In this document: positions 654 through 53,371 of the stretch, piece by piece
Numbering within the stretch: position 1 is the stretch's first letter
Layout: each line of letters starts with the position of its first letter
Source of the DNA: Minisyncoccia bacterium
GTDB taxonomy: Bacteria > Patescibacteriota > Minisyncoccia > 2-02-FULL-40-12 > IGHO2-01-FULL-4-A
Direction: 5' to 3'
Assembly (NCBI GenBank): GCA_050015375.1
Contig: JBEKBN010000001.1
Location: 34,683-98,682, forward strand
DNA: 64,000 nucleotides
Translations under genes and position numbers: made by a program
The notes under the pieces: model-generated
Databases searched by the model: none
What the model saw: only the letters and a program-made list of their open reading frames with translations
Told to the model about the DNA's origin: nothing

Positions 654-1671
654 AATCGTTTTGGGCATTCTGGTTTTCATAACCGGCTTTTTGGTTATCC
701 GGGTTGGCTCCGTCCTGACAAGCAAAGTCAAGCTCGCCGACACCACCGCCAGTATTGCCGGCGCCATCAGCAATAACGGCGACTTCACGCCGGTGGACCC
801 GATGACCGTCGATTCCGATCATGATGGCCTTCCGGATCGGGAGGAAATAATTTACGGCACCGACCCTAATAATCCCGACACCGACGGTGACGGTTTTACG
901 GATGGCGAAGAGGTAGCGGCCGGCACTGATCCATTGGATCCGAATGACAACATAGCGACTAGAAAAGCCGGCACCAGCACCGGCAGTTTATCCTTGGTCT
1001 CACCCACGGCGAATTTGACCGACCGCCTCTTGAATACGGGCCTGGCATCTTTGATAGATGATTCGGGCAATCTGAATCCTGACGCCATGACCGACCAAAA
1101 ATACGCCGATATTTTAAATACTATAAACGCCGCCGCCGCCGCCGGACTCGCGCCGACGACGATCGCTGATAGCGACATCAAGATCATTAGCGACAACAGC
1201 CCGGCGGCCATTACCAAATACATCAACACCGTTTCTTCAATAATTGAAGAAGGAATATTTGGTCCCACCGGCGCGATGATAACCGGTACGTCCGACGACA
1301 TCATCGGTTTATCCCAAAATGAAAATTATTATCAAAATAAATATAACGCCTTGAAAGTCATTGAGGTGCCGTCGTCGTGGAAGGAAATAGACAAAACGAC
1401 TTTGACCAGTTTGCAATCTTTGGCCAATGCTACCAAAGCTCTCACACCCGATGCAATAAATTCCGACCCGGTCATGGCTAGTTATGCTTTGAATCAACTC
1501 CAGAACGCATTTTTAACCCTAACTGACTTGATCAGCCAAGCATGCAGTTTGGCCCAATCCCAGAATGTCCCGATCAAGGATTCAATTTTTGATATGCTGA
1601 AAGCCGTCAATGTATCGGCTTCTCCGACACCTCAGATTTCTGCAACACCTCAAGTTTCTCCGATACCATAA
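637..1671 (+). CDS. membrane-anchored secreted protein with thrombospondin-type-3-like Ca-binding repeats
   Basis: N-terminal TM helix (LGILVFITGFLVI), then DSDHDGLPDREE / DPNNPDTDGDGFTDGEE / DPLDPND aspartate-rich repeats. Start overlaps the lnt stop. Confidence 0.5.
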   Translation: MSNRLKIVLGILVFITGFLVIRVGSVLTSKVKLADTTASIAGAISNNGDFTPVDPMTVDSDHDGLPDREEIIYGTDPNNPDTDGDGFTDGEEVAAGTDPLDPNDNIATRKAGTSTGSLSLVSPTANLTDRLLNTGLASLIDDSGNLNPDAMTDQKYADILNTINAAAAAGLAPTTIADSDIKIISDNSPAAITKYINTVSSIIEEGIFGPTGAMITGTSDDIIGLSQNENYYQNKYNALKVIEVPSSWKEIDKTTLTSLQSLANATKALTPDAINSDPVMASYALNQLQNAFLTLTDLISQACSLAQSQNVPIKDSIFDMLKAVNVSASPTPQISATPQVSPIP

Positions 1672-1677
1672 TAAGCT

Positions 1678-3060
1678 ATGGCCAAATTTAAAAAAATCTT
1701 CGCTTCAGTTGTCATCGCCTTTTTGATTTTTGATCTCCTAGTAATTTCATCGAAAAATGCCCAGGCTGCTGCTTTTATCGGTGACCCTTTGGAATTCACC
1801 AAACAATACATAATTTACCCTCTCGTCAGAGCAATTGCCAATTCGTTTGAAAGTATTCTTATCAACAAACTCAATCAACAGATAATCGGCGCTAACGGCG
1901 CCGTGCCATCGTTCATCACCAACTGGCGCAACCATCTTTTGGATTCCGAGGCCCGAGGCAATGATGTTTTCCGCTCGGTTCTGGCTGATGCAAATATCTG
2001 CGGTTTTATGTCGAGTAACATTAAGACGGCTTTCGGCGCCGATCTGTTCGCCGGTTCGATCGCCGGCGCGACCGTGAAGGACGCCAGCGGCAAAGTCGTC
2101 TACACCAACGAGACCAATGTGCCGGGCATGGCCTCTTTCCAGGAATCGGCGAAGTGTACCCTGCCGGCAAATTTTGATGTCAATGCCTTCAATCAGGATT
2201 TTTCTAAAGGCGGCTGGGCGGCCTGGGATCAAATGCTTGAGCCCCAGAACAATCTTTTCGGCATCTACACAATGGCTTTGGGTGAACAGCAAGCTCAGAT
2301 CGCCACCGAGCAAACCTCGACTATGAACTCGGCTGTCGCCGGCAATGGATTTTTGTCAAGCAAGTTGGGCAATGCCGTGGGTTCGGCTCTAGGAGTAAGC
2401 GGATCAGCTACCGGGCCGACCGGTTGCGTTGACACGGCCGGAACCCTGTCCGGTGGGGTCCAGGGCCCTACCATGACTACCCGTTGCACCTTCATGGGTA
2501 AGGATGTTACGCCAGGTTTTCTTAAAGCTGGCGGCGCCGGTTCGGCGATAGGCACAAAAATCGGCCAACCTCAAGCAGCTAAAGAAATTACGGATGTTGT
2601 GTTGAGTCTTTTTAATGACGTGCTTAAGGTGGTCGCGGACGCGACCGGCTCGGTTGGCAACTATCTGGGTCAAGCATCATACGACGCGACTGTCGGCTCC
2701 TTACCTGGCTTTAGCGAAACCCAGAAACAAGCCGGCGCCAGCGACACCCAGATCAATCAGGTCCAGCAACAGGTCAATCAAACCTCGGCTCAACTCGGTC
2801 AAAAAGAAAGCGCTACGGCAAGCGCCGCCAGTGGCACTTGCAGTTCGACTTGCATGGCTACCAAAGCGACGACCTGCACAACTAACAACCAGGTCACCAC
2901 TTGCAACCCAGTGACCGATCCCGTAACCGGCCAGACAACACAAAGTTGCCAGACCAGCACCGACCCAACCGGCTACAACGCCTGCATGGCCCAAGCCCAG
3001 ACCGATTGTAACGCTCAATGCCCGGTCGTGCCTACAGTAAGTATTCCGCCTCCGCCCTAA
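1678..3060 (+). CDS. secreted Gly-rich protein with Thr/Cys-rich C-terminal tail, hypothetical
   Basis: Signal peptide MAKFKKIFASVVIAFLIFDLLVISSKNAQA. C-terminus TCSSTCMATKATTCTTNNQVTTCNPV...CNAQCP. First gene of the T4SS-like block. Confidence 0.45.
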   Translation: MAKFKKIFASVVIAFLIFDLLVISSKNAQAAAFIGDPLEFTKQYIIYPLVRAIANSFESILINKLNQQIIGANGAVPSFITNWRNHLLDSEARGNDVFRSVLADANICGFMSSNIKTAFGADLFAGSIAGATVKDASGKVVYTNETNVPGMASFQESAKCTLPANFDVNAFNQDFSKGGWAAWDQMLEPQNNLFGIYTMALGEQQAQIATEQTSTMNSAVAGNGFLSSKLGNAVGSALGVSGSATGPTGCVDTAGTLSGGVQGPTMTTRCTFMGKDVTPGFLKAGGAGSAIGTKIGQPQAAKEITDVVLSLFNDVLKVVADATGSVGNYLGQASYDATVGSLPGFSETQKQAGASDTQINQVQQQVNQTSAQLGQKESATASAASGTCSSTCMATKATTCTTNNQVTTCNPVTDPVTGQTTQSCQTSTDPTGYNACMAQAQTDCNAQCPVVPTVSIPPPP

Positions 3061-3067
3061 GACCTAA

Positions 3068-5230
3068 ATGCGACTATTTAAAATAAGCAAAAAAATCATT
3101 CCGATAATAGTCATCGTCGCGATGCTGATTTTGATTTTGCCCCAGCATCAAGCGAAGGCGGATCTTCCGGGCCTTGGTAGCATGGCAATAGGCGGCGTCG
3201 CGAGTTGGATAATGAACACAATCATCACAGGAGTGGGTACAGCGATTAGTTGGTCAGCTGGGCTTTTGGATTCTTTCATCGGCATGACTTCTTTTAACCC
3301 CCCATCCCAAGTTCAGGACAGTTGGAAAATGATTCGTGATTTCGTAAACATGTTTTTTATCCTGGTTCTGGTTATTATGGCATTCGGCACGATATTCGAT
3401 CTCCAAAAATATAACTATAAAACATTACTTTCGAGTTTTCTAATTGCTGCGATTTTTGTGAATTTTAGCTATGCAATCGGCATTTATATCTGGAACATCT
3501 CCAATGGCCTCGCTCATATTTTTTTGAGCACGATTCAGGGCGCAAGTAACCAAAGCGTGAGCGCAATCCTTGGCAACGGGCTAAGCTTGGGTCATTTTGT
3601 GACTTGGAACGGAGGCAATGCCGTAAATATCAGCGGCATTTCCAGCACGACAAGCATCGGGGCAGGTTCACCAATAATTACTTCCGTCTTCTTTATAGTA
3701 TTTTTAGTGATGGCTTTGATGGCAATCTTGTCGGCCGCTATTTTTGCTTTCATCAGAATCCCGTTCATCTGGTTCTTTCTTATCATTTCTCCAATCGCAT
3801 GGTTAAGTTATGCCCTGCCTAGCATGCGAAGCGCCGGTTGGAGCAAATGGTGGAAAAATTTTTTAGGCTGGTGTTTCTTTTTGCCGATTTATCTTTTTTT
3901 CCTGATGTTCGCCGTGATTTTTATTCATGTCAAGGACTCGAAAATTACCGAGATCGCAAAACAGCAGGCATTTTTGGCAGGCCCGCAGGCGCAATATGGC
4001 AACACTATGGCTGGGTTATTCCAGGCCATCGGTTTGAACGATATCTTCTTTTTTGTCGTAACGATTATTATCATGGTTTACGGATTGGCCATGGCGAAAA
4101 CGGTTGCCTTCGCGGGTGGTAGCCGAGCCATGAAAATTTTCGGTGGCATTGAGAACGGGGTCAAGCGCTACTTCCCGGGTTCGAGAACGGCACGAGGTAT
4201 ATACGCAGGTGCAAAGCAGGGATATGAGGCCAGAGTCGAAAGAGCCAAGACCGAGGGCGTTGGTTTTGGACGATTTAGAATTGGCGGTGAGAGTAAACTA
4301 AAAGGGACAATTGCCGAAATGGGCGGTTTTGGTGAAAGAGGGGCCAGAGAAAAACAGTTCGCCGCCGAAGTTAAAAAATTAAAAGAATCGATGGCAAATA
4401 TCGGCGATATCGAGCGTATCAGAAAAATGTCTCAGTCTGGCTCGGCTTACCAACAGCTTGCTGCAGCCGAAATACTCAGAGAAAGAAATGCGATGTCCGG
4501 CCAGGAGATGATTGATACGTACAAAAAATACCGAGAGAATAAGGCGTATGTTTCCGCGACTAGATTTATCAGTAGTGTAGACTTCAAGGATCTATCTGGG
4601 GAAGAAAGACGTGCCATCAACGCGAATCTGAATGTTACAGATCTTGAAGCTAAAAGAAAAATCGCCAAAGTCATGGCAGAAAAGGGCGACTTTAAGGCAC
4701 CACTGGGAACACCGGATAATATGAAAGTTCAAGCCGTCGCCGACCAGATTACTAAGGCCGCCGAATTGTTTGCTACGGCTGGGGACAGATTGGATATCTT
4801 GCAGAAAGCGAAGAAAGGTAACATCGAAGCAGCTGCTATAGCCACTGTTAATCTTAAGATACAGGATAAGGATGGGAATATTATTAAAACCACCGATGAC
4901 GCTATCACTAAGCTATTCATTGATTCTATCAGAAAAGCAAAGGTTGACGATATGATCGATCTTTCAAAGGAAACCCTCGCGAATGAGGAAGTAAAAAAGA
5001 TAATTCTGGATAAATTAGACAGAGATTTTCGGACAAAAAATGATTTTATGAATCGAGCAACTGATAAACAAAAAATGGCATTGGGTCTTCCTACTGGCCA
5101 ACAACCACCGCAGACATTCAATGTGGGCGAGGGAATTAGTAGCAATGTGGAACGAGACGGAAATCCGAAAGTAATTCTCGCTTCCGAAAATAATGTCATC
5201 GACCTCCGCAATAAATCTGGCGATGATTAA
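3068..5230 (+). CDS. polytopic membrane protein, VirB6/TrbL-like (putative T4SS channel component)
   Basis: 720 aa. N-terminal signal/TM, then about 6-7 hydrophobic helices in the first 300 aa, and a long charged C-terminal domain. Position upstream of VirB3-like/VirB4 genes. Confidence 0.4.
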   Translation: MRLFKISKKIIPIIVIVAMLILILPQHQAKADLPGLGSMAIGGVASWIMNTIITGVGTAISWSAGLLDSFIGMTSFNPPSQVQDSWKMIRDFVNMFFILVLVIMAFGTIFDLQKYNYKTLLSSFLIAAIFVNFSYAIGIYIWNISNGLAHIFLSTIQGASNQSVSAILGNGLSLGHFVTWNGGNAVNISGISSTTSIGAGSPIITSVFFIVFLVMALMAILSAAIFAFIRIPFIWFFLIISPIAWLSYALPSMRSAGWSKWWKNFLGWCFFLPIYLFFLMFAVIFIHVKDSKITEIAKQQAFLAGPQAQYGNTMAGLFQAIGLNDIFFFVVTIIIMVYGLAMAKTVAFAGGSRAMKIFGGIENGVKRYFPGSRTARGIYAGAKQGYEARVERAKTEGVGFGRFRIGGESKLKGTIAEMGGFGERGAREKQFAAEVKKLKESMANIGDIERIRKMSQSGSAYQQLAAAEILRERNAMSGQEMIDTYKKYRENKAYVSATRFISSVDFKDLSGEERRAINANLNVTDLEAKRKIAKVMAEKGDFKAPLGTPDNMKVQAVADQITKAAELFATAGDRLDILQKAKKGNIEAAAIATVNLKIQDKDGNIIKTTDDAITKLFIDSIRKAKVDDMIDLSKETLANEEVKKIILDKLDRDFRTKNDFMNRATDKQKMALGLPTGQQPPQTFNVGEGISSNVERDGNPKVILASENNVIDLRNKSGDD

Positions 5231-5288: not shown

Positions 5289-5912
5289 TTAAGCTCTCCT
5301 GTAGTTTAGCACATAACGAACAAGGTCTTTTATATAAGTATCTGAAACTTCACATCCTTTATATTCCTGAAATAGCACTCCGCCATACCACCCATTTTCT
5401 GGTCGCCTCCCCCTGAAACCACGCTTATGGACGCAAACCTCAAAATAAAAAGACCTTTGATCGGAATTATAGATAATATGGACAAGCCTATCCCTAAAAC
5501 GAGTGCTCGGGTCAAAGAGTAGATAACACTCTGAAACAGTCCATTGTTTATCCAGATTTTTTCCGTATACCTTGCTCTCGGTTCGAATTTCCATTCCGGA
5601 GTTAAGTTCTGATTCGATTAACTTCTTGACCCTGAGAGCGACCGGTTTAACTATTTGGAGATTGGGCTCATTTTCATATTTTTCTTGTAGTTTTTCAGAT
5701 TCCCTATGCTCTGTCTCTCTGTCTCGCCGCCTTTTTTCTTCTTCCCGTAGCTGTTCTTCGCGCTGTTCTTGTTTTTCTTGTAACAAATAAGCCCTATAGC
5801 CCTCCTGTTGACCCTCCCACTCTTCTCGGCTTTGGAATAAGCCTGGCGACGAACCGGGCTGATGTCCTCTAAGACCCCTTTCGTATCCATCGGTTTTCTT
5901 AGACATATTCAC
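5289..5912 (-). CDS. hypothetical protein with charged coiled-coil N-terminus
   Basis: 207-aa ORF on the opposite strand inside the T4SS-like block; E/R/K/Q-rich N-terminal half. No recognisable motif. Confidence 0.4.
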   Translation of the reverse strand: MNMSKKTDGYERGLRGHQPGSSPGLFQSREEWEGQQEGYRAYLLQEKQEQREEQLREEEKRRRDRETEHRESEKLQEKYENEPNLQIVKPVALRVKKLIESELNSGMEIRTESKVYGKNLDKQWTVSECYLLFDPSTRFRDRLVHIIYNSDQRSFYFEVCVHKRGFRGRRPENGWYGGVLFQEYKGCEVSDTYIKDLVRYVLNYRRA

Positions 5913-5992
5913 ACTCCTTTTGGTTGTTTTCTGCTATAATTGTATAGGTGCTGACTGTCTAGGACACTAACAGGGCCTGATAATTAAGTCAA

Positions 5993-6317: not shown

Positions 6318-6968
6318 ATGCCGCCAAACACCAAACCAGACAATAAAATAGCCACGACCAAGGATTTCGTCCAGATCGCCGATATCCGCGATTCGGTTTT
6401 GATCTTAAAAGACGGCGGTTTGAAATCTCTCATCGAGGTCAATTCGATGAACTTCGAGCTCAAATCAGCCGACGAGCAGACGGCTATTATTCAGTCGTTC
6501 CAGAATTTCGTGAACTCGCTGGATTTTTCTCTCCAGATCGTGGTCAATTCCCGAAAACTCGATCTCAAGCCCTATTTGAAATTCGTTGACGGCATCATCG
6601 CCGAGCAGAAAAACGAGCTTTTGAAGATCCAGGCCATTGATTACAGCCGGCTCCTGACCGGCCTGACCGAACTCTCCAACATTATGGAAAAAAAGTTCTA
6701 CGTCGTGGTGCCGTTTTTCGGCGTCGAGACGCCAAAGACCAAAGCCGGTTTTCTCAGCGCTTTCAAGGGCGTTCTGACGCCATCGGAATTTGCCAAAGCG
6801 ATCAGCGATGAGCAATTCCAGACCTACAAAACTCAGCTCGACCAACGAATAGAACTTATCGCCGGCGGCATCAGCGCTCTGGGACTTGAGGCCAAAGTTC
6901 TCAAAGATGACGAACTGAAAAAACTTTTCTATTCATATTACAATCCCGGGCAACATCTGGAAGCGTAA
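6318..6968 (+). CDS. VirB4-family N-terminal domain-like protein (possible 5' part of a split VirB4)
   Basis: 216 aa. DFVQIADIRDSVLILKDGGLKSLIEVNSMNFELKSADEQTAIIQSFQNFVNSLDFSLQIVV resembles the N-terminal region of Gram-positive-type VirB4/ConE/Orf16 ATPases, from memory only. In frame with the next ORF; separated from it by one TAA. Confidence 0.4.
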   Translation: MPPNTKPDNKIATTKDFVQIADIRDSVLILKDGGLKSLIEVNSMNFELKSADEQTAIIQSFQNFVNSLDFSLQIVVNSRKLDLKPYLKFVDGIIAEQKNELLKIQAIDYSRLLTGLTELSNIMEKKFYVVVPFFGVETPKTKAGFLSAFKGVLTPSEFAKAISDEQFQTYKTQLDQRIELIAGGISALGLEAKVLKDDELKKLFYSYYNPGQHLEA

Positions 6969-6983
6969 AACTCAAAACGAAAC

Positions 6984-8753
6984 ATGCCATTTTTCGGAAA
7001 GAAAAAAGAAAAAGTTCAGGAAGATACCGCCAAGAAAACCTTCGACGATATTTTGGCGCCTTCGGCGATAAATCTTTCGGCAAATTACATCCAGATCGGC
7101 GACAAATTCGCTCGGACCTTGTTTGTCATCACTTATCCGAGATACCTCAATACCAATTGGTTCTCGCCGATAATCAACATGGACCAGCCGATGGATATTT
7201 CTATTTTCATTCACCCCTTGGACACCGGCGTTATTTTGAAAAAATTACGTGACAAGCTTGGACGCCTTGAAGCCGAGGTCATGGAAGACGAGTCGGCCGG
7301 CAAGGTCCGCGATCCGGTCAAGGAAACGGCGGTCAACGACATTGAGGAGCTTCGCGACAAACTCCAGCAGGGCACCGACAGGTTTTTCGAATTCGGTTTG
7401 TATGTCACGCTTTATGGCGACTCGGTCAAGGAACTTGACGAAGTTGAGAATAAAGTTCGGGCGATTCTGGACGCCCAATTGGTCTACACTAAGCCGGCGA
7501 CTTTCCGGATGAAAGAAGGTTTTTTCTCGACCATGCCTTTGAGCAACGACCAGTTGGATGTCCATACTTCGCTTAATACCGAACCGGTTTCTTCGCTGTT
7601 CCCGTTCGTCTCTTACGACCTGACCACCGACAAAGGGATACTTTACGGCGTCAATTCGCATAACAATTCTCTGGTGCTTTTCGACCGGTTCAGTTTGGAA
7701 AATTACAACATGGTCGTCTTCGGTAAATCCGGCGGCGGCAAATCCTACGCCGTTAAATTGGAGATAATGAGAAGTTTGATGCTTGGCGTTCAGGTGTTCG
7801 TTATTGATCCTGAGAATGAATTCAAATATCTTGCCGATACCGTCGGCGGCACTTCAATAAAAATATCCATTTCGTCAGAGGACCACATCAATCCTTTCGA
7901 CCTGCCCAAACCCCAGCCAGACGAATCGCCGGCCGATGTTTTGCGTTCACATATTTTGGACCTGATCGGGCTTTTGAAACTGATGCTTGGCACGATCACT
8001 TCCGACGAGGAAGCTATTCTTGACGAAGCCGTCATTCAGACCTATGCCATCAAAGATATCACCCAAAATTCCGATTTTTCCAGCGCCACGCCACCTCTCA
8101 TGTCCGATCTCTTGAGCGTGCTTGAAGGCATGACCGGCGCCCAGTCGCTGGCTGTCCGGCTGAAAAAATATACCGAGGGCAGTTTCGCCGGTTTTTTGAA
8201 CAACCCGACCAATGTCCGGCTTGATAATCAGTTGGTCGTTTTCGGCATCCGCGACATGGAGGAAGAGTTGCGGCCGGTGGCGATGTATCTGGTTCTAAAT
8301 TACATCTGGGCTCAAGTCCGGAGCGACATAAGAAAAAGATTGCTGGCGGTGGATGAGGCCTGGGTTTTGCTGAAATACGAGGTTGGCGGCGCTTTTCTTC
8401 TCAATATCGCCAAAAGGGCCAGGAAATATTATCTGGGCCTGACGACTATCTCCCAGGACATTCCCGATTTCATGAATTCGGCTTACGGCAAACCGATCGT
8501 CACCAACTCATCGCTCCAATTGCTTTTGCGCCAGTCGCCGGCTTCCATTGACCTTGTCCAACAAACATTCAATCTGACCGATTCCGAGAAATTTTTCCTG
8601 TTGGAATCGCGAGTCGGCCACGGGCTTTTCTTCGCCGGCCAGAATCATGTCGCTCTCCAGGTCGTTTCTTCTTACGCCGAAGACCAGGTCATTACTTCCG
8701 ACCCGCGCCAACTGGCCGACATCGAAGAGGCCAAAAAAGAACTAGAAAAGTAG
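6984..8753 (+). CDS. virB4: VirB4/TrbE/CagE-family conjugal-transfer ATPase (ATPase core)
   Basis: Walker A VVFGKSGGGKSYAV. Walker B LLAVDEAWVLL (DEAW typical of VirB4/TraC). Region before Walker A (KFARTLFVITYPRYLNTNWFSPII...DISIFIHPLD) is typical of VirB4. Confidence 0.7.
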   Translation: MPFFGKKKEKVQEDTAKKTFDDILAPSAINLSANYIQIGDKFARTLFVITYPRYLNTNWFSPIINMDQPMDISIFIHPLDTGVILKKLRDKLGRLEAEVMEDESAGKVRDPVKETAVNDIEELRDKLQQGTDRFFEFGLYVTLYGDSVKELDEVENKVRAILDAQLVYTKPATFRMKEGFFSTMPLSNDQLDVHTSLNTEPVSSLFPFVSYDLTTDKGILYGVNSHNNSLVLFDRFSLENYNMVVFGKSGGGKSYAVKLEIMRSLMLGVQVFVIDPENEFKYLADTVGGTSIKISISSEDHINPFDLPKPQPDESPADVLRSHILDLIGLLKLMLGTITSDEEAILDEAVIQTYAIKDITQNSDFSSATPPLMSDLLSVLEGMTGAQSLAVRLKKYTEGSFAGFLNNPTNVRLDNQLVVFGIRDMEEELRPVAMYLVLNYIWAQVRSDIRKRLLAVDEAWVLLKYEVGGAFLLNIAKRARKYYLGLTTISQDIPDFMNSAYGKPIVTNSSLQLLLRQSPASIDLVQQTFNLTDSEKFFLLESRVGHGLFFAGQNHVALQVVSSYAEDQVITSDPRQLADIEEAKKELEK

Positions 8754-11723: not shown

Positions 11724-12212
11724 CTAGATCACCAGGGGTTTAATGACGATCCGGCGCCTGGGTTCTTCGCCGATGCTTTCAGTCAGGACTTCTTTGTAAG
11801 AGGCGAGTTCAGTGTGGACCAGCCGCCTTTCATAGGAACTCATCGGCGCCAAGGCCTCGGCGCGTTGTGTGTTAATGACCCGGCTGGCCGCGCTTTTGGC
11901 CAGATCCAAAATATATCTTGACCTGGATTTCCGATAATCGTTGATATCCACGGCGAAGTTGGGAATTTTCTGCTCCGGGCCGCCGACCCGTCGAAAAGCG
12001 ATCAGCCGGATGATGTGCTCAAGAGCGTTGAGATTTTGGCCGTTCTTACCGATCAAAATGCTCAAGTCCTTCTCGGATTCAATGGAGACCACCGGCAAAG
12101 CGCCGACTTCGAAACTGTTTTCAACCAATTTGACCTCGGCCTCAAAACCGACTTTTTCTAAAAGTTCCTTGGCGACAGACAAGATCTGATTGTCCAGTTT
12201 TGTTTCTTCCAT
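11724..12212 (-). CDS. khpB: Jag/KhpB RNA-binding protein (KH + R3H domains)
   Basis: R3H motif SYERRLVHTELASYKEV. Conserved position immediately downstream of yidC. Confidence 0.7.
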   Translation of the reverse strand: MEETKLDNQILSVAKELLEKVGFEAEVKLVENSFEVGALPVVSIESEKDLSILIGKNGQNLNALEHIIRLIAFRRVGGPEQKIPNFAVDINDYRKSRSRYILDLAKSAASRVINTQRAEALAPMSSYERRLVHTELASYKEVLTESIGEEPRRRIVIKPLVI

Positions 12213-12213
12213 G

Positions 12214-12939
12214 TCAGTTGATCGGGTATTTTTTGTTGATATATAGTTGTTCGAATATCGAATAAATGGTGGTCACAACCCAATAAACGACCAAACCGGC
12301 CGGCAGGCTCCAAGCGATTATTATAATCATGATCGGCAAAAAATACAACATCTGTTTGTTCATGACCGAAGCGGTCATGTCCTGGCTGTCTTTATTGGCT
12401 CCGGTCTGGGTCGGATGGATCATGTTTTTGGCCGCCAGGCGCGATTGGATCCACTGCATCGCCCCGGCTAAAACGGCCATGATCGGGTTGTGGGCGGTAA
12501 GATTTATGAAGCCGAGAAAGGTATTATTGATGACTCCCGGATGGCTGATGAAAGAGTACAGACCCGAGACGCCGGCCGGGTTCAAACCCGAGCGGAAAGC
12601 GCTGTAAAGCGCCAAAAGTATCGGGATCTGGATCAAAAGCGGCAAACAACCGGCGAAGGGATTCACCTTGTGGGCCTTGTAAAGATCCATCGTCGCTTTG
12701 GCGGCCGCTTGCTTGTCGTCTTTGAATTTTCTGTTTATCTCTTTTATCTCGGGCTGGAGTTTGGTCAGTTCTCTCTGAGAACGCAAAACTTTTATTGAGA
12801 GAGGGGAGAAAATGAATCGGATGATGATCGTCAGGACGATAATGGCCACGCCAAAATCCCGGCCCGGGATCATTTCATAGAGAAGGATCAGGATATTGAA
12901 TATCGGCCGAAATAAAATTGTGTTGAAAAATGCTATCAT
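12214..12939 (-). CDS. yidC: membrane protein insertase YidC (short form)
   Basis: 241 aa. Conserved YidC core (IIRFIFSPLSIKVLRSQRELTKLQPEIKEI; C-terminal positive tail). Synteny rnpA-yidD-yidC-jag. Confidence 0.85.
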   Translation of the reverse strand: MIAFFNTILFRPIFNILILLYEMIPGRDFGVAIIVLTIIIRFIFSPLSIKVLRSQRELTKLQPEIKEINRKFKDDKQAAAKATMDLYKAHKVNPFAGCLPLLIQIPILLALYSAFRSGLNPAGVSGLYSFISHPGVINNTFLGFINLTAHNPIMAVLAGAMQWIQSRLAAKNMIHPTQTGANKDSQDMTASVMNKQMLYFLPIMIIIIAWSLPAGLVVYWVVTTIYSIFEQLYINKKYPIN

Positions 12940-13167: not shown

Positions 13168-13250
13168 CCCCATTAGAGAGTGTTGATTAATCTTGTTTGT
13201 CTCCAAATTTCGGGGTTATTTTTCTAATTCACCCTCTCTAACGGGGTTGA
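13168..13250. repeat. CCCGTTAGA...TCTAACGGG-family palindromic element; right arm forms the 3' end of rnpA
   Basis: CCCCATTAGAGAG (13168-80) ... CTCTCTAACGGGG (13238-50) inverted termini with one A/G mismatch. Lies between the rnpA stop and the yidD start. Confidence 0.55.
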
Positions 13251-13575
13251 CAGATATTTTTTTGATGTTTTTTTCGATTTGCCCCTTGATTTCATCAAAC
13301 GACTTCTCTAGGATGATTGGGGTCGCCGTGATGACGGCGTCCAGCGGTAAATTTAAAAATAATTTCAGGGCTTCGGATATTCTTCTTTTTATCCGGTTCC
13401 GGTCAACGCTTTTTTTCGAGACCGAAACGGGCACGACGATGCCCCAGCGGGCGAAGTCCCGTCCGTTGGCCAGATACCTGATAAAGAAAAAACTGTTTTG
13501 GACAGTTTTCCCCTCTCTAAAAAGGCGGCGGAAGTCGTCTTTGGCGGTAATCCTGTTTTTTTTGGGTAAAGCCAT
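13216..13575 (-). CDS. rnpA: ribonuclease P protein component RnpA
   Basis: KKNRITAKDDFRRLFREGK...IRYLANGRDFARWGIVVPVSVSKKSVDRNRIKRRI typical RnpA; rpmH directly upstream. The last ~11 codons (VNPVREGELEK) are encoded by the palindromic element arm. Confidence 0.85.
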   Translation of the reverse strand: MALPKKNRITAKDDFRRLFREGKTVQNSFFFIRYLANGRDFARWGIVVPVSVSKKSVDRNRIKRRISEALKLFLNLPLDAVITATPIILEKSFDEIKGQIEKNIKKISVNPVREGELEK

Positions 13576-15522: not shown

Positions 15523-16611
15523 ATGAATATAATTATTAACAGACAAAAACTTCAGTCGGCGCTTGGCGTGGTCGAGAAAATAATTTCCAAGAATGTTTCT
15601 TTGCCGATCCTCAATACCATTTTACTTAAAACCGAGAACGGCCGGCTGAAATTGTCGGCTACTAATTTGGAAATGGGCATCAAGTACTGGGTCGGCGCCA
15701 AAATAAACAAAGAAGGCGAAGTCGCCGTGCCCGCCAGAGTATTTTCTGATTTCATCAGCAACGTCAATGACGAAAAACTGAATCTGTCGGTGGAAAAAAA
15801 CGTCATTTCCATAAATTCTGAGCATTACAAAACCCAAATTCTGGGTCTTGATACCAAAGAATATCCGATCCTGCCCAAAGCCAAGAATGCCGTCGAATTC
15901 AAGATTTCCAGCTCGACCCTGAAGAATTCTCTGGCGTCGGTATTCGATTCCTCCTCGCTTTCCGAAACCAGACCGGAGATCGCCGGCGTCCTTTTGAATG
16001 TCGGCAAAAACAAAGCCGAATTCGCCGCCACCGACAGTTTTCGCCTGGCCGAGAAAATAATTGACGTCCGGGACGGCATAGACCGTTCAATGATCATTCC
16101 CCGGACGACGGCCTTGGAATTGATGCGGATCTCGGAAGGCGCCGAACAGGAATTGACTCTGGCGGTGGCCGACAATCAGCTTTTCGTTTCAGGCGAGGAT
16201 TTTGAATTCGTTTCCCGGCTCATTGACGGCCATTACCCGGAATACAAAAAAGTCATTCCCGAACGATTCGTGGCTTTGGCCAAAGTTGATAAGGCCGAAT
16301 TTGAGAGAAATATCCGGATGGCCAGCGTTTTTTCTTCCAATGTTTTTGATATCAAACTCAAAGCCGCCGGCAACCTGCTCCAAATAAAAGCCCAAAACAA
16401 CGATCGCGGGGAGATCCTGACCAACATTCCCTGCCTGGTGAAAGACGGACCGTTCGAGGTTTCGGTCAATTATCATTATCTTTTGGATGGCATCAAATCA
16501 ATTCCGACGGCCAATCTCATCATCCAATTCACCGGCGACGGCAGTCCTTTGGTTCTCAAAGGCGAAGAGAAAAAAGACCAGACGTATATCATAATGCCGT
16601 TGAGGGGCTAA
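15523..16611 (+). CDS. dnaN: DNA polymerase III beta sliding clamp
   Basis: 362 aa. MNIIINRQKLQSALGVVEKIISKNVSLPILNTILLKTENGRLKLSATNLEMGIKYW typical DnaN N-terminus. Confidence 0.9.
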   Translation: MNIIINRQKLQSALGVVEKIISKNVSLPILNTILLKTENGRLKLSATNLEMGIKYWVGAKINKEGEVAVPARVFSDFISNVNDEKLNLSVEKNVISINSEHYKTQILGLDTKEYPILPKAKNAVEFKISSSTLKNSLASVFDSSSLSETRPEIAGVLLNVGKNKAEFAATDSFRLAEKIIDVRDGIDRSMIIPRTTALELMRISEGAEQELTLAVADNQLFVSGEDFEFVSRLIDGHYPEYKKVIPERFVALAKVDKAEFERNIRMASVFSSNVFDIKLKAAGNLLQIKAQNNDRGEILTNIPCLVKDGPFEVSVNYHYLLDGIKSIPTANLIIQFTGDGSPLVLKGEEKKDQTYIIMPLRG

Positions 16612-22576: not shown

Positions 22577-23560
22577 ATGGCGGAAAAAGAACCAAAAAAG
22601 GGAGAAATAGTCATCTACAAAACCTCAAAAGGGCCGGAGTTGGAAGTTAAGTTGGAGAAGGAAACCATTTGGCTGACGCAGGCGCAGATTGCTTTACTTT
22701 TTGATTCAGAAAGAAGCGTTATCACAAAACATCTAAACAACATATTCGAAGAAGGCGAGATTGATCAGAAAAGCAATGTGCAAAAAATGCACATTGCAAA
22801 TTCTGATAAGCCCGTGGCATTTTATAGCCTCGATGTCATAATCTCCGTCGGTTATCGGGTCAATTCAAAAAGCGCAACCCAGTTCAGGATTTGGGCGACG
22901 AGAACCCTCAAACAGCATCTCATCCAGGGATATACCATCAATGAAAAAAGATTGCTGAACGCAAGGGCGAAATTCGCCGAACTCCAAAGCGCCATTTTGT
23001 TTTTAAGCGAGAAATCAAAACACGAACTTCTTGGCGGACAAGAACAGGAAATATTGAACCTGCTTTCAATCTATTCGAAGACCCTTACCCTCCTTGAGCA
23101 ATACGATACCAATAAGCTCAAAACCGTTTCCGGCAAAAAAGCCAAGTTCGTTTTAGATTACGCAAAATCAAAAAAGATAATCGAAGATGTTGGAGTCGGA
23201 TTGGCCTCAATGGGAGGCGCAGGGGATTTGTTCGGCCAAGAATATACGGGTAAATTGGAGGCCATTGTCAAAAACCTCTATCAAACATATGACGGCAAAG
23301 AACTCTATGACACCATTGAGGAAAAAGCCGCCCATCTTTTATACCTAACCATCAAAGACCATCCTTTCGCTGACGGCAATAAAAGAATCGCCTCATTTTT
23401 GTTTGTTTATTATTTGGACAAAAATAGCTATCTTTACAAAGAAACCGGCGAAAAGAAGATTAACGACAATGCTCTGGTAGCCCTAGCCCTGTTGATTGCG
23501 GTCAGCAAACCACTCGAGAAAGATGTTATGATAAAAATAATCATGAATTTGTTGGTTTAA
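22577..23560 (+). CDS. Fic/DOC-family protein with RhuM-like N-terminal domain
   Basis: Fic motif HPFADGNKRIASFLFVYYL (HPFx[DE]GNxR). N-terminal region ...WLTQAQIALLFDSERSVITKHLNNIFEEGE... typical of RhuM-type proteins. Confidence 0.75.
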   Translation: MAEKEPKKGEIVIYKTSKGPELEVKLEKETIWLTQAQIALLFDSERSVITKHLNNIFEEGEIDQKSNVQKMHIANSDKPVAFYSLDVIISVGYRVNSKSATQFRIWATRTLKQHLIQGYTINEKRLLNARAKFAELQSAILFLSEKSKHELLGGQEQEILNLLSIYSKTLTLLEQYDTNKLKTVSGKKAKFVLDYAKSKKIIEDVGVGLASMGGAGDLFGQEYTGKLEAIVKNLYQTYDGKELYDTIEEKAAHLLYLTIKDHPFADGNKRIASFLFVYYLDKNSYLYKETGEKKINDNALVALALLIAVSKPLEKDVMIKIIMNLLV

Positions 23561-23629: not shown

Positions 23630-24058
23630 ATGAAGGGGAATCTGGCGGCTCGATCTATGGGAAACACCTACCTCTCGTATCAGCAATTAAAAAAACCATC
23701 ATGGTCTCCGCCGAGCTGGCTTTTCGGCCCGGTCTGGACGGCGCTTTATATTTTAATCGTCATTTCCTTCGGTTACACCGGCTGGCTGTTTTTCAACGGT
23801 AAAATTTCCTTCCTCATCCTTTTGCCGTTCATCCTGAATCTAATTTTCAATTTTTCTTTTACCACTATCCAATTCAAACTCAAGAATAATCTGCTGGCGG
23901 CCGCCGACATCTTGCTTGTCTTAGCCACTCTCATCTGGGCCATGGTTGCCATCTATTTTGACGTCCGCTGGATCGCCTATCTCCAAATACCATATTTTCT
24001 CTGGGTTTCCTTCGCGACCATACTGCAACTGACAGTTACATATTTAAACCGGGAATAA
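23630..24058 (+). CDS. tspO: TspO/MBR-family tryptophan-rich sensory protein
   Basis: KPSWSPPSWLFGPVWTALYILIVISFGYTGWL; 5 TM helices, Trp-rich. Confidence 0.7.
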   Translation: MKGNLAARSMGNTYLSYQQLKKPSWSPPSWLFGPVWTALYILIVISFGYTGWLFFNGKISFLILLPFILNLIFNFSFTTIQFKLKNNLLAAADILLVLATLIWAMVAIYFDVRWIAYLQIPYFLWVSFATILQLTVTYLNRE

Positions 24059-24251: not shown

Positions 24252-24800
24252 ATGAATATCAAAGATGTAAAAACAGCAATAAAGGTTGGTGATTTTGTAT
24301 TGAGGAAAAATCATAGAAATAAAATAGATATCAAATATTTATCTAGTTTAAGCAGTGACATACTTACTGATAATTCGGCCAGGGTTTATTTAATAATTCA
24401 AGACGAGATTATTAAGAAAATCGGAGGCTCTGCTTCAAAAGGGGGAATTAAGGCAACAATGGCATTCTATGTTTCAGCCATGGAAGGAAGTCCGGGCGTC
24501 CCCAGGTTTGTTCTTCACCTCCTTATTGAAAGAGCTCTAATTGGCAAATCAAAAATGGAATTATACATGATAACTTCTCCTAAAACACTTGCCAGGGTCA
24601 GTGGCTTATTCGGCTATAAGAAAGTAAAAATTGCAAGTTTTAAGGAGATGGAGGATTTATGCAAATCCGATTATTTTTCGATAGAAAAGAAATATCCCGA
24701 TTGGAATTTCCAAGAAAATCACCAACCGTATCCTCCTGACTTGGCAAAAGAGCATAATTTATACCACCAAAGACGGCTCAAAAATAAACTTAAATTTTAG
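24252..24800 (+). CDS. hypothetical protein (AT-rich gene, convergent with lexA-dam fusion)
   Basis: 182-aa ORF at very low GC; no motif recognised. Confidence 0.35.
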   Translation: MNIKDVKTAIKVGDFVLRKNHRNKIDIKYLSSLSSDILTDNSARVYLIIQDEIIKKIGGSASKGGIKATMAFYVSAMEGSPGVPRFVLHLLIERALIGKSKMELYMITSPKTLARVSGLFGYKKVKIASFKEMEDLCKSDYFSIEKKYPDWNFQENHQPYPPDLAKEHNLYHQRRLKNKLKF

Positions 24801-26328
24801 GTGGACAGAAAATAATTATCTCGTGAGACTCTTTTATGTGATTCCCATTACCATTCCTTCGATTCAATCCTATTCTGGTTTCCCCTTGGCCCATAGTGTA
24901 TTGCCATGAAGGGAAAAGTTGCTGAAATTCCTTGTAATGTTCTTTTATCGTCGGGCAGTTATTATATGAGAGGATGAATCCTCCTTTATGATTTTTTAAC
25001 AAATCTCGCAAATCCTCATGAGGGAATCCCTTATGATGAACAGGTATATTTCTCATCGGATAGATCCCTTTAAACATTTTTGAATCTTTACCTATGTAAT
25101 AAGGGGGATCGCAATACAAAAAATCGTCGGGGTGATCTCTAATGACATCCCTAAAATCCGCACACTCAACTTTAAGATTATTGGGATCAAAATCTCGGAT
25201 ATTTTCAATTGTCCTCTTATATTTTTTGTCATTCAAATAAATGTCAGATGACCAGCCCATAAACCCTGGGCCATATGATAAATTGAAGTTGTAAACATAA
25301 TAGACAGCCAAAGTTAGCGGATCTAGTTTAACTTTCTTTTTCCACACATCATTCAATATTAATCTAATTCTTTCAAATGTTTCCTTGTTTGGTTTCAACT
25401 CTTTCAATTTTTTATAAAGAAGTTTTGGTTTATTAATCTGAAACCCCCAGTAATTACAGAGAATATCAAAAATATCATAACCAATAACTTCCAGGCCGAG
25501 TTCTTTACTCATGGCTATTTCGATTGAACCACCGCCGAAAAACGGTGATACAACCCTTTTTATATTCTCTGGCAGTAACTCAACTATATGACCCACGGCT
25601 AAACTTTTTCCACCCGCATATCTTATGGGGGAAAGAGCAACTCTTTTGTATTTGTTCTGACTGTCCGGATTAGAACTTCTGATACGGTCTAAGAAAGTTT
25701 TTTTTCTGAGCGCTAATGTATTGTTCTTATTGCCATTTTCCAAATTTCTTATAATTTTGATTACGATACCCCGGATCTCTAATTCTTTACGATAGATCGG
25801 CAATATTTCCTGATTTGCCGGTTGTAATCTAAAGCGTCCACTTTCTCGATAGATTTTTTTTAGGGTCGCCTTATCGTCATCAATAATTGCTACTACAGTT
25901 TGACCATCATCGGCGGTTTTTTGCTCACGAATTACCACGGTATCCCCGTCAAATATCCCATCGTTAATCATGCTATTGCCCGACACTCTTAATGCATAGT
26001 GCCTGCCAGCAATTGGAATTTCAGTCTGGGGAATAAAGATATTTTCTCCGTGCATCTCAAGCGCTTCAATCGGTTGACCAGCGGCAATTGTCCCGAGGAG
26101 GGGGATACGGACCAGTTTAGTCGAGGTTTTGACAATTTGAATTCCTCGCGCGCGGCCGTTAGCTTTTTCCAGATATCCCTTGTCCTGCAGGATCATCAGA
26201 TGTTCGTGTGCCGTTGACGGCGAAATCCTAAGTCGGCGGGCAATTTCACGTTCGGTCGGAGCGATGCCTTTTTTTGCGATGACTTTATCCACAAGATCTT
26301 TCACTTGTTTCTGTCTTGGTGTGAGCAT
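24790..26328 (-). CDS. LexA-like repressor (HTH + S24 peptidase) fused to Dam-type N6-adenine DNA methyltransferase
   Basis: N-terminus MLTPRQKQVKDLVDKVIAKKGIAPTEREIARRLRISPSTAHEHL (LexA HTH). ...VSGNSMINDGIFDGDTVVI...TLKKIY (S24 Ser/Lys dyad). Linker, then SPIRYAGGKSLAVGHIVELLP...SPFFGGGS (motif I) and LYCDPPYYIGK (DPPY motif IV) of D12-class Dam MTases. One uninterrupted 512-517-aa ORF. Confidence 0.65.
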   Translation of the reverse strand: MLTPRQKQVKDLVDKVIAKKGIAPTEREIARRLRISPSTAHEHLMILQDKGYLEKANGRARGIQIVKTSTKLVRIPLLGTIAAGQPIEALEMHGENIFIPQTEIPIAGRHYALRVSGNSMINDGIFDGDTVVIREQKTADDGQTVVAIIDDDKATLKKIYRESGRFRLQPANQEILPIYRKELEIRGIVIKIIRNLENGNKNNTLALRKKTFLDRIRSSNPDSQNKYKRVALSPIRYAGGKSLAVGHIVELLPENIKRVVSPFFGGGSIEIAMSKELGLEVIGYDIFDILCNYWGFQINKPKLLYKKLKELKPNKETFERIRLILNDVWKKKVKLDPLTLAVYYVYNFNLSYGPGFMGWSSDIYLNDKKYKRTIENIRDFDPNNLKVECADFRDVIRDHPDDFLYCDPPYYIGKDSKMFKGIYPMRNIPVHHKGFPHEDLRDLLKNHKGGFILSYNNCPTIKEHYKEFQQLFPSWQYTMGQGETRIGLNRRNGNGNHIKESHEIIIFCPPKI

Positions 26329-26343
26329 ATTATAATTATACAA

Positions 26344-26395
26344 TATATACCCGAGCAGAACCCGAGCAGTTATCCACAGTCAATTATTGAATCAA
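26344..26395 (-). promoter_or_regulatory. putative leaderless promoter/operator of the lexA-dam gene
   Basis: Minus strand: TGTGGATAA (perfect DnaA-box 9-mer), then CTGCTCGGGTT-CTGCTCGGGT tandem direct repeat, then TATAAT ending 5 nt before the ATG. No Shine-Dalgarno sequence. Confidence 0.4.
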
Positions 26396-26502
26396 ATTAT
26401 GAAGAGAGTATTATTGTATGTTAAATTATTAATTAAAATAACTATCGTACGAAAAGGGCTTCAAACAAAACCCTTTCAGTAGGGTAGTGAAAATTAATCT
26501 CA

Positions 26503-27015
26503 ATGTACAAAAATATTCATAATTTCGTTCCATTTCAACATGACAATCAAGATTTTAAAAACAAACTAATAGGTTTTGCACGCAACCAAGATAAGATAAA
26601 AATTGAAGGTGTTTTTACGGCAACTCTAATCTATACAAACCTCGTTGATTATTTAGCTACGAACCTGTTCGATAATCTAAATAAAATGTTATCAATTTTT
26701 ACATTTAAAAAATTTGGTGGCGTTTTTCATCTAGATACATCCCAAAAAAGGACCCATTTATCAGTCGGAGAGTTACAGAGAGAATTAAGTTATTTCGAAT
26801 TTCCAAATCGAAATGATTTTTTGGCATGTTTAGAAGAATTCAGGAGGCTCCGAAATGAAGTTATGCATAATCTCATGGGAGTTGATCCCAACGACACAAC
26901 AATGAAACTTGATAAGGGTTTAGCGAGGATTGCAGAGATTTCCGAAGATATTCTAGCGAAATATAATGTGATTTGTGCAGGGCTTATAACTATTTGGAAT
27001 AACGCCAACGCTTAA
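26503..27015 (+). CDS. hypothetical protein
   Basis: 170-aa ORF in the AT-rich island; no motif recognised. Confidence 0.35.
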   Translation: MYKNIHNFVPFQHDNQDFKNKLIGFARNQDKIKIEGVFTATLIYTNLVDYLATNLFDNLNKMLSIFTFKKFGGVFHLDTSQKRTHLSVGELQRELSYFEFPNRNDFLACLEEFRRLRNEVMHNLMGVDPNDTTMKLDKGLARIAEISEDILAKYNVICAGLITIWNNANA

Positions 27016-27053
27016 AGGAGTAATATAATTAATCAAGAAAGGAGGTAAATAAT

Positions 27054-27281
27054 ATGCATAGGCAAAATAAACAAGTAATAGAATATATTCTGCTCATTTC
27101 AATTATTATATTACCCTTTGTCGCGGGGTATATATTTAATGATTACAAAATACCAGCATTTCTCTTTTTGCTTGGTACTGCTCTGTTTCATGTTGTCAGA
27201 GAAAGGATTCAATCGAATATAAGCGGAGAGGGGGTCAGAAAAATTACAGTGGGTAGCAAAGCACCCCCTGGATCCAGCTAA
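27054..27281 (+). CDS. small 2-TM membrane protein
   Basis: Strong Shine-Dalgarno AAAGGAGGT 8 nt upstream; two hydrophobic helices. Confidence 0.4.
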   Translation: MHRQNKQVIEYILLISIIILPFVAGYIFNDYKIPAFLFLLGTALFHVVRERIQSNISGEGVRKITVGSKAPPGSS

Positions 27282-27364
27282 AGGTGATTTATGGCTTAAA
27301 ACAAAAGACTGACATGGATAGCGAAAATCGTACAGCTTGGATTGAGGGAAAAACAGTGCGATAA

Positions 27365-27850
27365 TTGATTGTCATGGAAAGCACAACAACATTTGTTCGG
27401 GATTTAATTAAGGGTCGGATTGCAGAAACGATTTTTGAAATGATGTTTCGGGAAACCGGAAAATTTACCATTCTCCGTTTTGGCTATGAATATACCCAGC
27501 CGGAACTCGCCCAGTACAAACATTATTTAAGATTACCGGAAGCCATCGAAAATATAGATAATTCCCCGGACTTTATTTTGTTATCGAATGATAAAACAAA
27601 AGTATATTTAGTTGAAGTAAAATACAGATCAAGTTTTGACTCAGACAAGATAAAAGTGATTGCCCAAAGCATTGCTTCAAGATGGCATTCCCCATACTTA
27701 TTTATCGCTACTCCAAAGGGTTTCTTTTTTGAACCATGCAATACAATCATCAAAAATAATGGAAACATCGGGCAATTATTTGATAATAAAGTGCCAAAAG
27801 AAATCCAAGAGAAATACCTAGAACTACTCAATGAATTTGAAAGAAAATAA
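27365..27850 (+). CDS. hypothetical protein with PD-(D/E)xK-like motif (module 1 large gene)
   Basis: ...SPDFILLSNDKTKVYLVEVKYRS... fits the PD...(D/E)xK nuclease signature. Central region shares HSPYLFIATPKG ~ HIYLFAPAHVAG with the 27968 gene. Confidence 0.4.
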   Translation: MIVMESTTTFVRDLIKGRIAETIFEMMFRETGKFTILRFGYEYTQPELAQYKHYLRLPEAIENIDNSPDFILLSNDKTKVYLVEVKYRSSFDSDKIKVIAQSIASRWHSPYLFIATPKGFFFEPCNTIIKNNGNIGQLFDNKVPKEIQEKYLELLNEFERK

Positions 27851-27859
27851 CGCCAACTT

Positions 27860-27958
27860 GTGATCCGGAAAATCAAAAATAAATATGTGGTTTTGTCCGA
27901 GAACGGCGAGCGGAAATTCGAGAGGTATAAATTTGAAAAAGCGATCAAACAGAAGTAA
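27860..27958 (+). CDS. tiny conserved ORF (module 1), VIRKIKNKYVVLSENGERKF-family
   Basis: 32 codons from GTG 27860. The peptide is nearly identical to the N-terminus of the 28438 ORF, while the DNA differs at synonymous positions. Confidence 0.4.
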   Translation: MIRKIKNKYVVLSENGERKFERYKFEKAIKQK

Positions 27959-27967
27959 AATTAAGGC

Positions 27968-28396
27968 GTGGGGAAAATAATAAAAATATCTGAAAAGCTG
28001 TATCAATTCAGGGATGAGACGGCCCTGATCATAGTTGCGGCCAAGCAGGAAGGCCGCGTTTTTCGCGCCGGCAACGGCGAACTCGAGCTTCTGGAAAAAT
28101 TCCGCGTCTCCACACCGCACTTTTCCGACAATGAAGGAATGTCGCAGGAGCGTGGACGTCGGGAAAATATCATTGAGGAAAACATCCATCACGAATACTT
28201 TGAGCATTTCCAAAAACTTTTGCGTTCCCTCGCGCCCCGTCTCAAGCCGACCCATATTTATCTCTTCGCTCCGGCTCATGTGGCAGGGGAGCTGGAGAAT
28301 ATCGTGAGACCGATCTTCGGCGCTCTGGCCGTCAGAACCGTCACCGGTATTTTCACCAAAGACACGCCGGTTGAATTCCTTGAACGGCTTCATTGA
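27968..28396 (+). CDS. hypothetical protein, divergent paralogue of 27365 gene (module 2 large gene)
   Basis: 142 aa; SLAPRLKPTHIYLFAPAHVAGELE aligns with SIASRWHSPYLFIATPKGFFFE of the upstream gene. Higher GC. Confidence 0.4.
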   Translation: MGKIIKISEKLYQFRDETALIIVAAKQEGRVFRAGNGELELLEKFRVSTPHFSDNEGMSQERGRRENIIEENIHHEYFEHFQKLLRSLAPRLKPTHIYLFAPAHVAGELENIVRPIFGALAVRTVTGIFTKDTPVEFLERLH

Positions 28397-28437
28397 GCCA
28401 GTGATTCATCGGGAACAAAAAATCAGAAAACTATTTC

Positions 28438-28578
28438 ATGATAAGAAAGATAAAAAACAAATACGTCGTCCTGTCGGAGAATTCGGGGCGGAAGTTCGGG
28501 AGTTACCGGACTCTAAAGGAAGCCAAAAAGCGCCTCCGCCAAGTTGAGTTCTTCAAGCACCGGAAATTCAAAAAATAG
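28438..28578 (+). CDS. tiny conserved ORF (module 2), MIRKIKNKYVVLSENSGRKF-family
   Basis: 46 codons, ATG 28438 to TAG 28576-78. Not in the supplied ORF track (<60 aa). Confidence 0.4.
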   Translation: MIRKIKNKYVVLSENSGRKFGSYRTLKEAKKRLRQVEFFKHRKFKK

Positions 28579-28686
28579 CCGCAGGGCTATTTTTTGATGA
28601 TTTGACATAATATCTTAAATCAGGTAATTTTAATCAGTTTTTATAACGCAGTTAGGACTGGGTTTTAGGCCCAAAGAAGGAGGTTT

Positions 28687-53292: not shown

Positions 53293-53297
53293 AATTG

Positions 53298-53371
53298 TGC
53301 GCGTGCCTGGACTCGAACCAGGGACCCCGTCTTTATAAGAGACGTGCTCTAACCGACTGAGCTACACGCGC
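53298..53371 (-). tRNA. tRNA-Ile (anticodon TAT; reads AUA)
   Basis: Acceptor GCGCGTG/CACGCGC, D-arm GCTC-AGTCGGTTA-GAGC (Ile-like), anticodon arm CGTCT-CTTATAA-AGACG, T-arm CCTGG-TTCGAGT-CCAGG, discriminator A. Confidence 0.6.

Follow-up and report, generated by a model that had tools for sequence, protein, structure and literature searches.

In a Patescibacteria genome (Minisyncoccia bacterium; assembly GCA_050015375.1, contig JBEKBN010000001.1), we analysed a stretch of 64,000 nucleotides, here called the window, in which the VirB4 ATPase of a type IV secretion system (T4SS) is spread over two consecutive open reading frames, ORF1 and ORF2. We conclude, with a probability of about 0.9, that VirB4 function is provided here by two adjacent and independently translated genes, a TrsD-like gene (ORF1) followed by the gene for a short VirB4 (ORF2). 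Direct reading of the sequence confirmed the layout described in an initial annotation: the two ORFs share one reading frame, with both start coordinates divisible by 3, and the letters between them are TAA AAC TCA AAA CGA AAC, followed by ATG, which amounts to one stop and five sense codons. From the start of ORF1 to the final stop of ORF2 there are 811 codons. The initial annotation had offered four explanations for this layout, namely a recent nonsense mutation, a sequencing or assembly error, a genuinely split VirB4 or programmed read-through. The genuine split proved to be the right one, as the genes are separate in 82 of 82 loci and their VirB4 homology is collinear.

ORF2 contains both of the ATPase motifs that had been reported for the downstream ORF, Walker A (GKSGGGKS) and Walker B (DEAW), and they lie in a RecA-like C-terminal domain. 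It matched the NCBIfam model NF045971 (conju_CD1110) with an E-value of 3.5e-105 and 352.9 bits, above the curated cutoff of 325, and it matched the Pfam families P-loop_TraG (1.4e-20; 73.8 bits, cutoff 25.8), AAA_10 and CagE_TrbE_VirB (1.5e-5; 25.5 bits, cutoff 21). Residues 218-571 align to the VirB4 C-terminal domain in PDB 4AG5 (E 3.3e-40). By these matches ORF2 is classed as a VirB4-type T4SS ATPase of the CD1110 family. The matched spans are partial: positions 183-733 of 752 in NF045971, 282-882 of 894 in NF045975 (VirB4_plasma, Mbov_0397-type VirB4) and residues 299-733 of TrwK, which align to ORF2 residues 113-537 (E 1.1e-10) and leave about 190 N-terminal TrwK residues uncovered. Some 190-200 residues at the start of a canonical VirB4 are thus missing from ORF2, which spans the latter half of the N-terminal domain together with the RecA-like ATPase domain; it does not have the full N-terminal domain of a single polypeptide of about 800 amino acids.

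The part of VirB4 that is absent from ORF2 is, as far as these comparisons tell, supplied by ORF1. The initial annotation had suggested a resemblance of the upstream ORF to the extreme N-terminal region of Gram-positive-type VirB4 proteins, and alignment to hidden Markov models bore this out. ORF1 matched positions 98-233 of 894 in NF045975 (E 2.8e-9), 13-119 of 752 in NF045971 (E 1e-3) and, also in the NCBIfam search, 19-65 of PRK13853 (E 0.011). All three are independent models of full-length VirB4, matched at N-terminal positions that are collinear with the downstream positions taken by ORF2. ORF1 also matched the TrsD/TraD model NF041427 at positions 13-98 of 201 (E 1e-5, 25.5 bits). An ORF1 profile was built from 74 homologues; in hhalign it aligned almost end to end with TrsD of plasmid pSK41 (E 1.5e-4) and, with a probability of 92.6%, with amino acids 133-313 of a Rubrobacter marinus protein in which the two parts are fused. 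The resemblance extends to the predicted fold. An AF2 model of ORF1 (mean pLDDT 75.5) was compared with the PDB by Foldseek, and the top 11 matches were all TrwK/VirB4 chains of the R388 T4SS, with probabilities of 0.96-1.00. In source-precomputed annotation, ORF1 and all 120 of its listed homologues carry the Pfam label PF26593, 'TraC-like'. The protein is predicted to be soluble, its C-terminal YYNPG is conserved as a true terminus, and its gene stands just upstream of a shortened virB4 and downstream of a VirB3-like gene. The evidence points to ORF1 being a TrsD/TraD-like protein that stands alone and is homologous to the N-terminal part (~200 residues) of full-length VirB4.

Several observations weigh against this assignment. 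The NF041427 score of 25.5 bits is far under the curated cutoff of 200, and because of this gap ORF1 would be placed as a distant relative outside the staphylococcal/enterococcal NF041427 subfamily. The hhalign probability for the match with pSK41 TrsD was only 52%, and the profile did not align significantly with TcpF of pCW3 (E 0.17), although the alignment does fall on the TcpF N-terminal positions 41-225. The Foldseek E-values were modest (4e-3 to 4e-2, with a TM of about 0.45), and the output did not state to which TrwK residues ORF1 had been aligned. When ORF1 and three homologues were scanned against a local Pfam-A copy, no meaningful match appeared even at an E-value of 10, and the PF26593 label for ORF1 is solely the source-precomputed one, the model being seemingly absent from the local Pfam copy. 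That ORF1 physically binds ORF2 and the VirB3-like protein PrgI is our inference.

Some of these points, namely the empty local Pfam scan and the similarity to VirB4 models that is weak in absolute terms, would suit an alternative in which ORF1 is an unrelated gene that happens to lie upstream of a naturally short VirB4, as would the lack of any match when ORF1 and its 74-sequence profile were searched by sequence against PDB chains. We consider this alternative very improbable, given the collinear matches to the N-terminal positions of three VirB4 models, the exclusive VirB4 identity of the best fold matches, the like segment that precedes VirB4 domains within the single Rubrobacter polypeptide and the strict conservation of gene order beside virB4. 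Published work agrees: Quinonero-Coronel et al. 2025 (Microb Genom, PMC12102498) regard TrsD as remotely homologous to the VirB4 N-terminus. For the TrsD-VirB4 homology they cite Guglielmini et al. 2014 (PMC4027160), whose main text does not mention TrsD by name.

To follow the split through related loci, we gathered nine loci from genomes and 80 from metagenomes, together with two contigs from the source metagenome (L015 and L016). Junction statistics refer to the 82 loci that could be scored for both genes; the window and its identical copy are among them. In all 82, an ORF1-type gene lies directly upstream of an ORF2-type gene in strictly conserved order, and each gene has its own stop and its own start. 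An intact fused gene, which would be expected in relatives had a stop codon recently broken virB4, was found in none of the 82 Patescibacteria loci; an apparent fusion that an automatic table gave for one locus (L049) was rejected on reading the sequence, which has a TAA, then 7 nucleotides, then an ATG. Relative frames 0, 1 and 2 occurred in 19, 23 and 40 loci, respectively, so that 23% of the pairs are in frame compared with the one third expected at random. Spacers ranged from -56 to +333 nucleotides, with ATGA and TAATG overlaps among them, and the stop codon of the ORF1 homologue was TAA in 59 loci, TGA in 18 and TAG in 5. The closest distinct strain, L016, from the same metagenome and with a 98% identical ATPase, has a 10-nucleotide deletion relative to the window, which leaves a spacer of 5 nucleotides and the genes out of frame, and a relative with 76% identity (L001) has a TAATG overlap at the junction.

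The two proteins also keep their separate lengths. We found 747 homologues of ORF1, from Minisyncoccia, Paceibacteria, Yanofskybacteria and other Patescibacteria; the best 120 of these are 50-81% identical to it, apart from one identical sequence (P0001), and are mostly 200-226 amino acids long, with four of 235-273. The best 120 homologues of ORF2, with identities down to about 68%, are all 561-644 amino acids long, and the ORF2 N-terminus, M-x-x-F-x-KKK, is kept in relatives. Judged from these comparisons, the split is ancient and kept by selection. Because the frames are spread over all three classes at about the level expected by chance for adjacent genes, the shared frame in this strain is an accident without significance, which would arise about one time in three, or here about one in four. 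Separately, in a Moraniibacteriota metagenome-assembled genome (JAHFOP010000031; L002), tblastn returned the VirB4 homologue at 1434-3175 as two pieces that differ in frame (1434-1889, frame 3; 1904-3175, frame 2), which suggests a frameshift there, due either to misassembly or to the gene being a true pseudogene.

At the junction itself, the 15-nucleotide gap is unremarkable among tightly packed operon genes, because the remaining junctions of the operon are all 1-10 nucleotides or overlaps, and positions 6966-6983 are an ordinary short operon junction and not a recoding site. No Shine-Dalgarno motif is recognisable upstream of ORF2, but this is uninformative, because most of the confident genes of the window, dnaA and dnaN included, lack a recognisable one. 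We rejected an alternative genetic code, since TAA is the most frequent normal stop among the same confident genes.

If the TAA were a site of programmed read-through or recoding, a fused full-length VirB4 would be made besides the two separate products. The matching frames, the stop-free spacer and the A-rich context of the stop (TAA AAC) are compatible with such an event. It needs a conserved in-frame layout, however, and in-frame pairs are rarer than chance would give; many pairs overlap, all three stop codons are in use, the 98% identical strain has lost 10 nucleotides of spacer and with them the common frame, no conserved sequence or structure was found downstream of the ORF1 stop in the relatives compared, and TAA is the window's commonest ordinary stop. 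Programmed read-through is therefore highly improbable, more so than an unrelated ORF1. Still less credence is due to the proposal that a once intact virB4 of about 811 codons was broken recently by the TAA and that the locus is a pseudogene or decaying. This proposal draws on two ORFs in one frame, just one stop and five codons apart, but it is contradicted by the lack of any fused relative, by the scattered frames, by homologues of both parts that are conserved in sequence and keep their separate lengths to about 50% (ORF1) and 68% (ORF2) identity, by the conservation of the ORF2 start (MxxF..KKK) and the ORF1 end as true termini, and by the occurrence of the two-gene layout on Firmicutes and Actinomycetota plasmids, with genes that overlap and differ in frame. 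An erroneous stop at 6966-6968 has an equally negligible chance: single-base errors are possible in a metagenome-assembled genome such as this one, but four contigs of differing origin (NCBI, JGI, Logan, ENA) carry the identical 216-residue ORF1, the one of these contigs that was read (L015) carries the same TAA and the same spacer, and every relative scored has a stop at the corresponding point. The split across relatives, the separate stops and the varied frames and spacers thus exclude nonsense mutation, assembly error and read-through alike as accounts of this junction.

The two-gene layout of a TrsD-like gene and virB4 is ordinary and already published, both in Patescibacteria and in pGO1-type T4SS loci. 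TrsD is the most abundant T4SS component recovered from Patescibacteria, with 2,272 homologues, 1,664 of which lie beside virB4 (PMC12102498), and in Ca. Southlakia epibionticum ML1 a TrsD homologue is among the genes listed as essential (Wang et al. 2023, as relayed by PMC12102498). The locus resembles the catalogued, MPF_FATA-related Patescibacteria systems (PMC12102498) in its phylum-level clade, in having a PrgI/VirB3-like gene and a TrsD homologue beside virB4, in the lack of a relaxase nearby and in the adjoining dnaA, dnaN and rnpA. There is no substantial difference from them, the accidental shared frame and the 15-nucleotide spacer being particular to this strain. Paceibacteria T4SS loci are known to lie near dnaA, dnaN, rnpA and rpmH (PMC12102498). 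Origin-type genes (rnpA, yidC, jag, dnaA and dnaN) occupy 11.7-16.6 kb of the window, and the locus is a chromosomal, origin-proximal T4SS of a Patescibacteria genome (Minisyncoccia/Paceibacteria).

The TrsD-TrsE (TraD-TraE) pair of the staphylococcal conjugative plasmids pGO1/pSK41, a prototype MPF_FATA subclass, has the same design, with a soluble protein of about 220 amino acids encoded directly upstream of a shortened VirB4/DUF87 ATPase of about 670 amino acids. In pSK41, trsD (25886-26569) likewise follows a gene for a small membrane protein and precedes a 672-residue DUF87/VirB4 ATPase gene (26584-28602). The similarity of TrsD to ORF1 is very remote, as the NF041427 score and the hhalign probability given above indicate. 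The pSK41 system serves plasmid conjugation and includes both a relaxase and a coupling protein; the locus described here is chromosomal with neither nearby. Single-chain VirB4 proteins (TrwK of R388, PDB 7O41/8RTB; the CD1110 and Mbov_0397 families; TcpF of pCW3) correspond to ORF1 and ORF2 together, which are collinear on the full-length models, with ORF2 sharing the Walker motifs and the 4AG5 C-terminal domain and the ORF1 model matching TrwK. Unlike in these proteins, the chain is interrupted here within the N-terminal domain, some 200 residues into the sequence, and in none of the 82 Patescibacteria loci is there a covalent link.

The same three-gene order, PrgI, hypothetical protein and DUF87 ATPase, recurs on megaplasmids of Bacillus thuringiensis Bt407, Clostridium perfringens (pJFP838A), Pontibacillus and Miltoncostaea. 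In tblastn the middle proteins of these triads show homology to ORF1 (E 1e-11 to 2e-20), and the genes overlap or are out of frame. They differ from the window in size, with middle proteins of 274-337 and ATPases of 620-660 amino acids, and in that the middle gene has no annotation beyond 'hypothetical'; in Pontibacillus, this also holds for the small gene upstream. A Rubrobacter marinus plasmid (NZ_CP045122; L011, 4593-8627) encodes the fused protein mentioned above, a single 'ATP-binding protein' of 1344 amino acids with the TrsD-like segment at 133-313, VirB4 domains from 397 on and, at 32-93, a weak, sub-threshold match to PrgI (E 0.01, 16.8 bits, cutoff 27). It appears to be, and would then be, a fully fused counterpart of the window's three separate genes. 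On a haloarchaeal plasmid of Salinibaculum sp. KK48 (L097, 1023-4250), the ORF1-like region forms the C-terminal ~200 residues of a hypothetical protein of 1075 amino acids, encoded directly upstream of an 843-residue DUF87 ATPase.

How the two products would work together can be modelled on TrwK of R388, whose covalently linked N-terminal domain contacts VirB3. ORF1, as a separate polypeptide, corresponds to the half of the N-terminal domain that lies nearer the membrane, and ORF2, presumably translated from its own ATG, starts where the ORF1 homology ends and has the rest of the N-terminal domain and the ATPase domain. The two proteins may assemble non-covalently into a complete VirB4 protomer, in which ORF1 would sit between the PrgI membrane anchor, its partner in place of VirB3, and the ORF2 ATPase hexamer. 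It is conceivable, although we think it unlikely, that the split is functional and not neutral, with the free TrsD-like protein acting between PrgI/VirB3 and the VirB4 hexamer as an adaptor that can dissociate and is dosed separately. If so, assembly might be regulated, or the stoichiometry might depart from 1:1, in an essential, non-conjugative T4SS of Patescibacteria, and the same would extend to the unannotated PrgI-X-DUF87 triads of Firmicutes and Actinomycetota megaplasmids. In a minor variant of this unlikely idea, low-level read-through of the TAA would yield some fused protein in this strain.

The genes around the pair are listed in Table 1. The gene immediately upstream, whose stop lies 1 nucleotide before the ORF1 start, encodes a PrgI family protein (E 2.5e-11, 44.4 bits, cutoff 27) with hydrophobic segments at amino acids 19-37 and 39-57, and the order PrgI, TrsD-like protein and VirB4 is also found in L016. 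Further upstream in the operon, a polytopic membrane protein of 720 amino acids, for which the Pfam and NCBIfam searches returned no match, is a candidate VirB6/PrgH-type channel subunit; its gene also precedes the L016 cluster. Of the two genes that follow ORF2, the first encodes a protein with three transmembrane segments and the second a protein with an N-terminal transmembrane segment and a TolB-like beta-propeller. After virB4, L015 has a gene of 130 amino acids and L016 has genes of 197 and 355 amino acids. The charged ORF on the minus strand gave no family match, and a 205-residue minus-strand gene was called at the equivalent place in L016. Between that gene and prgI, L016 has, at 1138-2011, an additional gene of 89 amino acids and a gene with an AbiEii domain (203 amino acids), where the window has a gap of about 80 nucleotides (5913-5992).

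Table 1. Positions of the features described in the text, numbered from the first letter of the window (aa, amino acids).
Feature	Position	Strand	Basis or remark
Polytopic membrane protein, 720 aa, same operon	3068..5230	+	about 8 hydrophobic segments
Charged ORF, 207 aa (E/R/K/Q-rich)	5289-5912	-	GTG start; between the 720-aa gene and prgI
PrgI family protein, VirB3-like small membrane protein, 107 aa	5993..6316	+	PF12666, hydropathy
ORF1, 216 aa	6318..6968	+	ATG 6318 to TAA 6966-6968; direct sequence reading
ORF1 TAA and 15-nucleotide spacer (6969-6983)	6966..6983	+	sequence read directly
ORF2, 589 aa	6984..8753	+	ATG 6984 to TAG 8751-8753; direct sequence reading
Two downstream operon genes, 130 aa and 358 aa	8763..10228	+	hydropathy, weak PD40/TolB matches
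jag	11724-12212	-	
yidC	12214-12939	-	
rnpA	13216-13575	-	
dnaA	13919-15289		
dnaN	15523-16611		
RhuM virulence-protein domain and Fic/DOC domain, 327-aa ORF	22577-23560	+	
TspO/MBR gene	23630-24058		adjoins the 327-aa ORF
LexA, S24 and D12 methyltransferase fusion, single 517-aa ORF	24790-26343	-	domain matches
tRNA-Ile, anticodon 'tat' (UAU)	53297-53371	-	ARAGORN; adjoins tRNA-Val(tac)

Elsewhere in the window, a stretch at 24-28 kb with a GC content of 0.365, compared with about 0.47 elsewhere, contains a single ORF that joins a LexA DNA-binding domain (residues 5-66), an S24 peptidase domain (80-194) and a D12-class N6-adenine DNA methyltransferase domain (241-483). More than 100 protein clusters, with lengths of about 511-518 amino acids and identities of 70-78%, share this three-domain fusion, those with a named taxon all being from Patescibacteria (Giovannonibacteria, Wolfebacteria), and no description of it was found in the literature searched. 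The RhuM-Fic/DOC ORF and the TspO/MBR gene lie at the edge of the same low-GC stretch. The window also contains a tRNA-Ile with a UAU anticodon. In most bacteria AUA is decoded by a CAU tRNA that carries the lysidine modification, so a UAU tRNA-Ile would be the rarer solution.

The locus leaves current understanding of these systems unchanged, and it carries a caution for annotation. A VirB4 of about 590 amino acids that follows an in-frame ORF of about 215 amino acids, in Patescibacteria or in pGO1-type Gram-positive systems, should be taken neither for a pseudogene, nor for half of a pair to be merged, nor for a recoding site, and on several megaplasmids the upstream gene is still labelled only as a hypothetical protein. 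These data suggest that the N-terminal domain of VirB4 can be supplied in trans, which may aid structural work on the T4SSs of Gram-positive bacteria and Patescibacteria.

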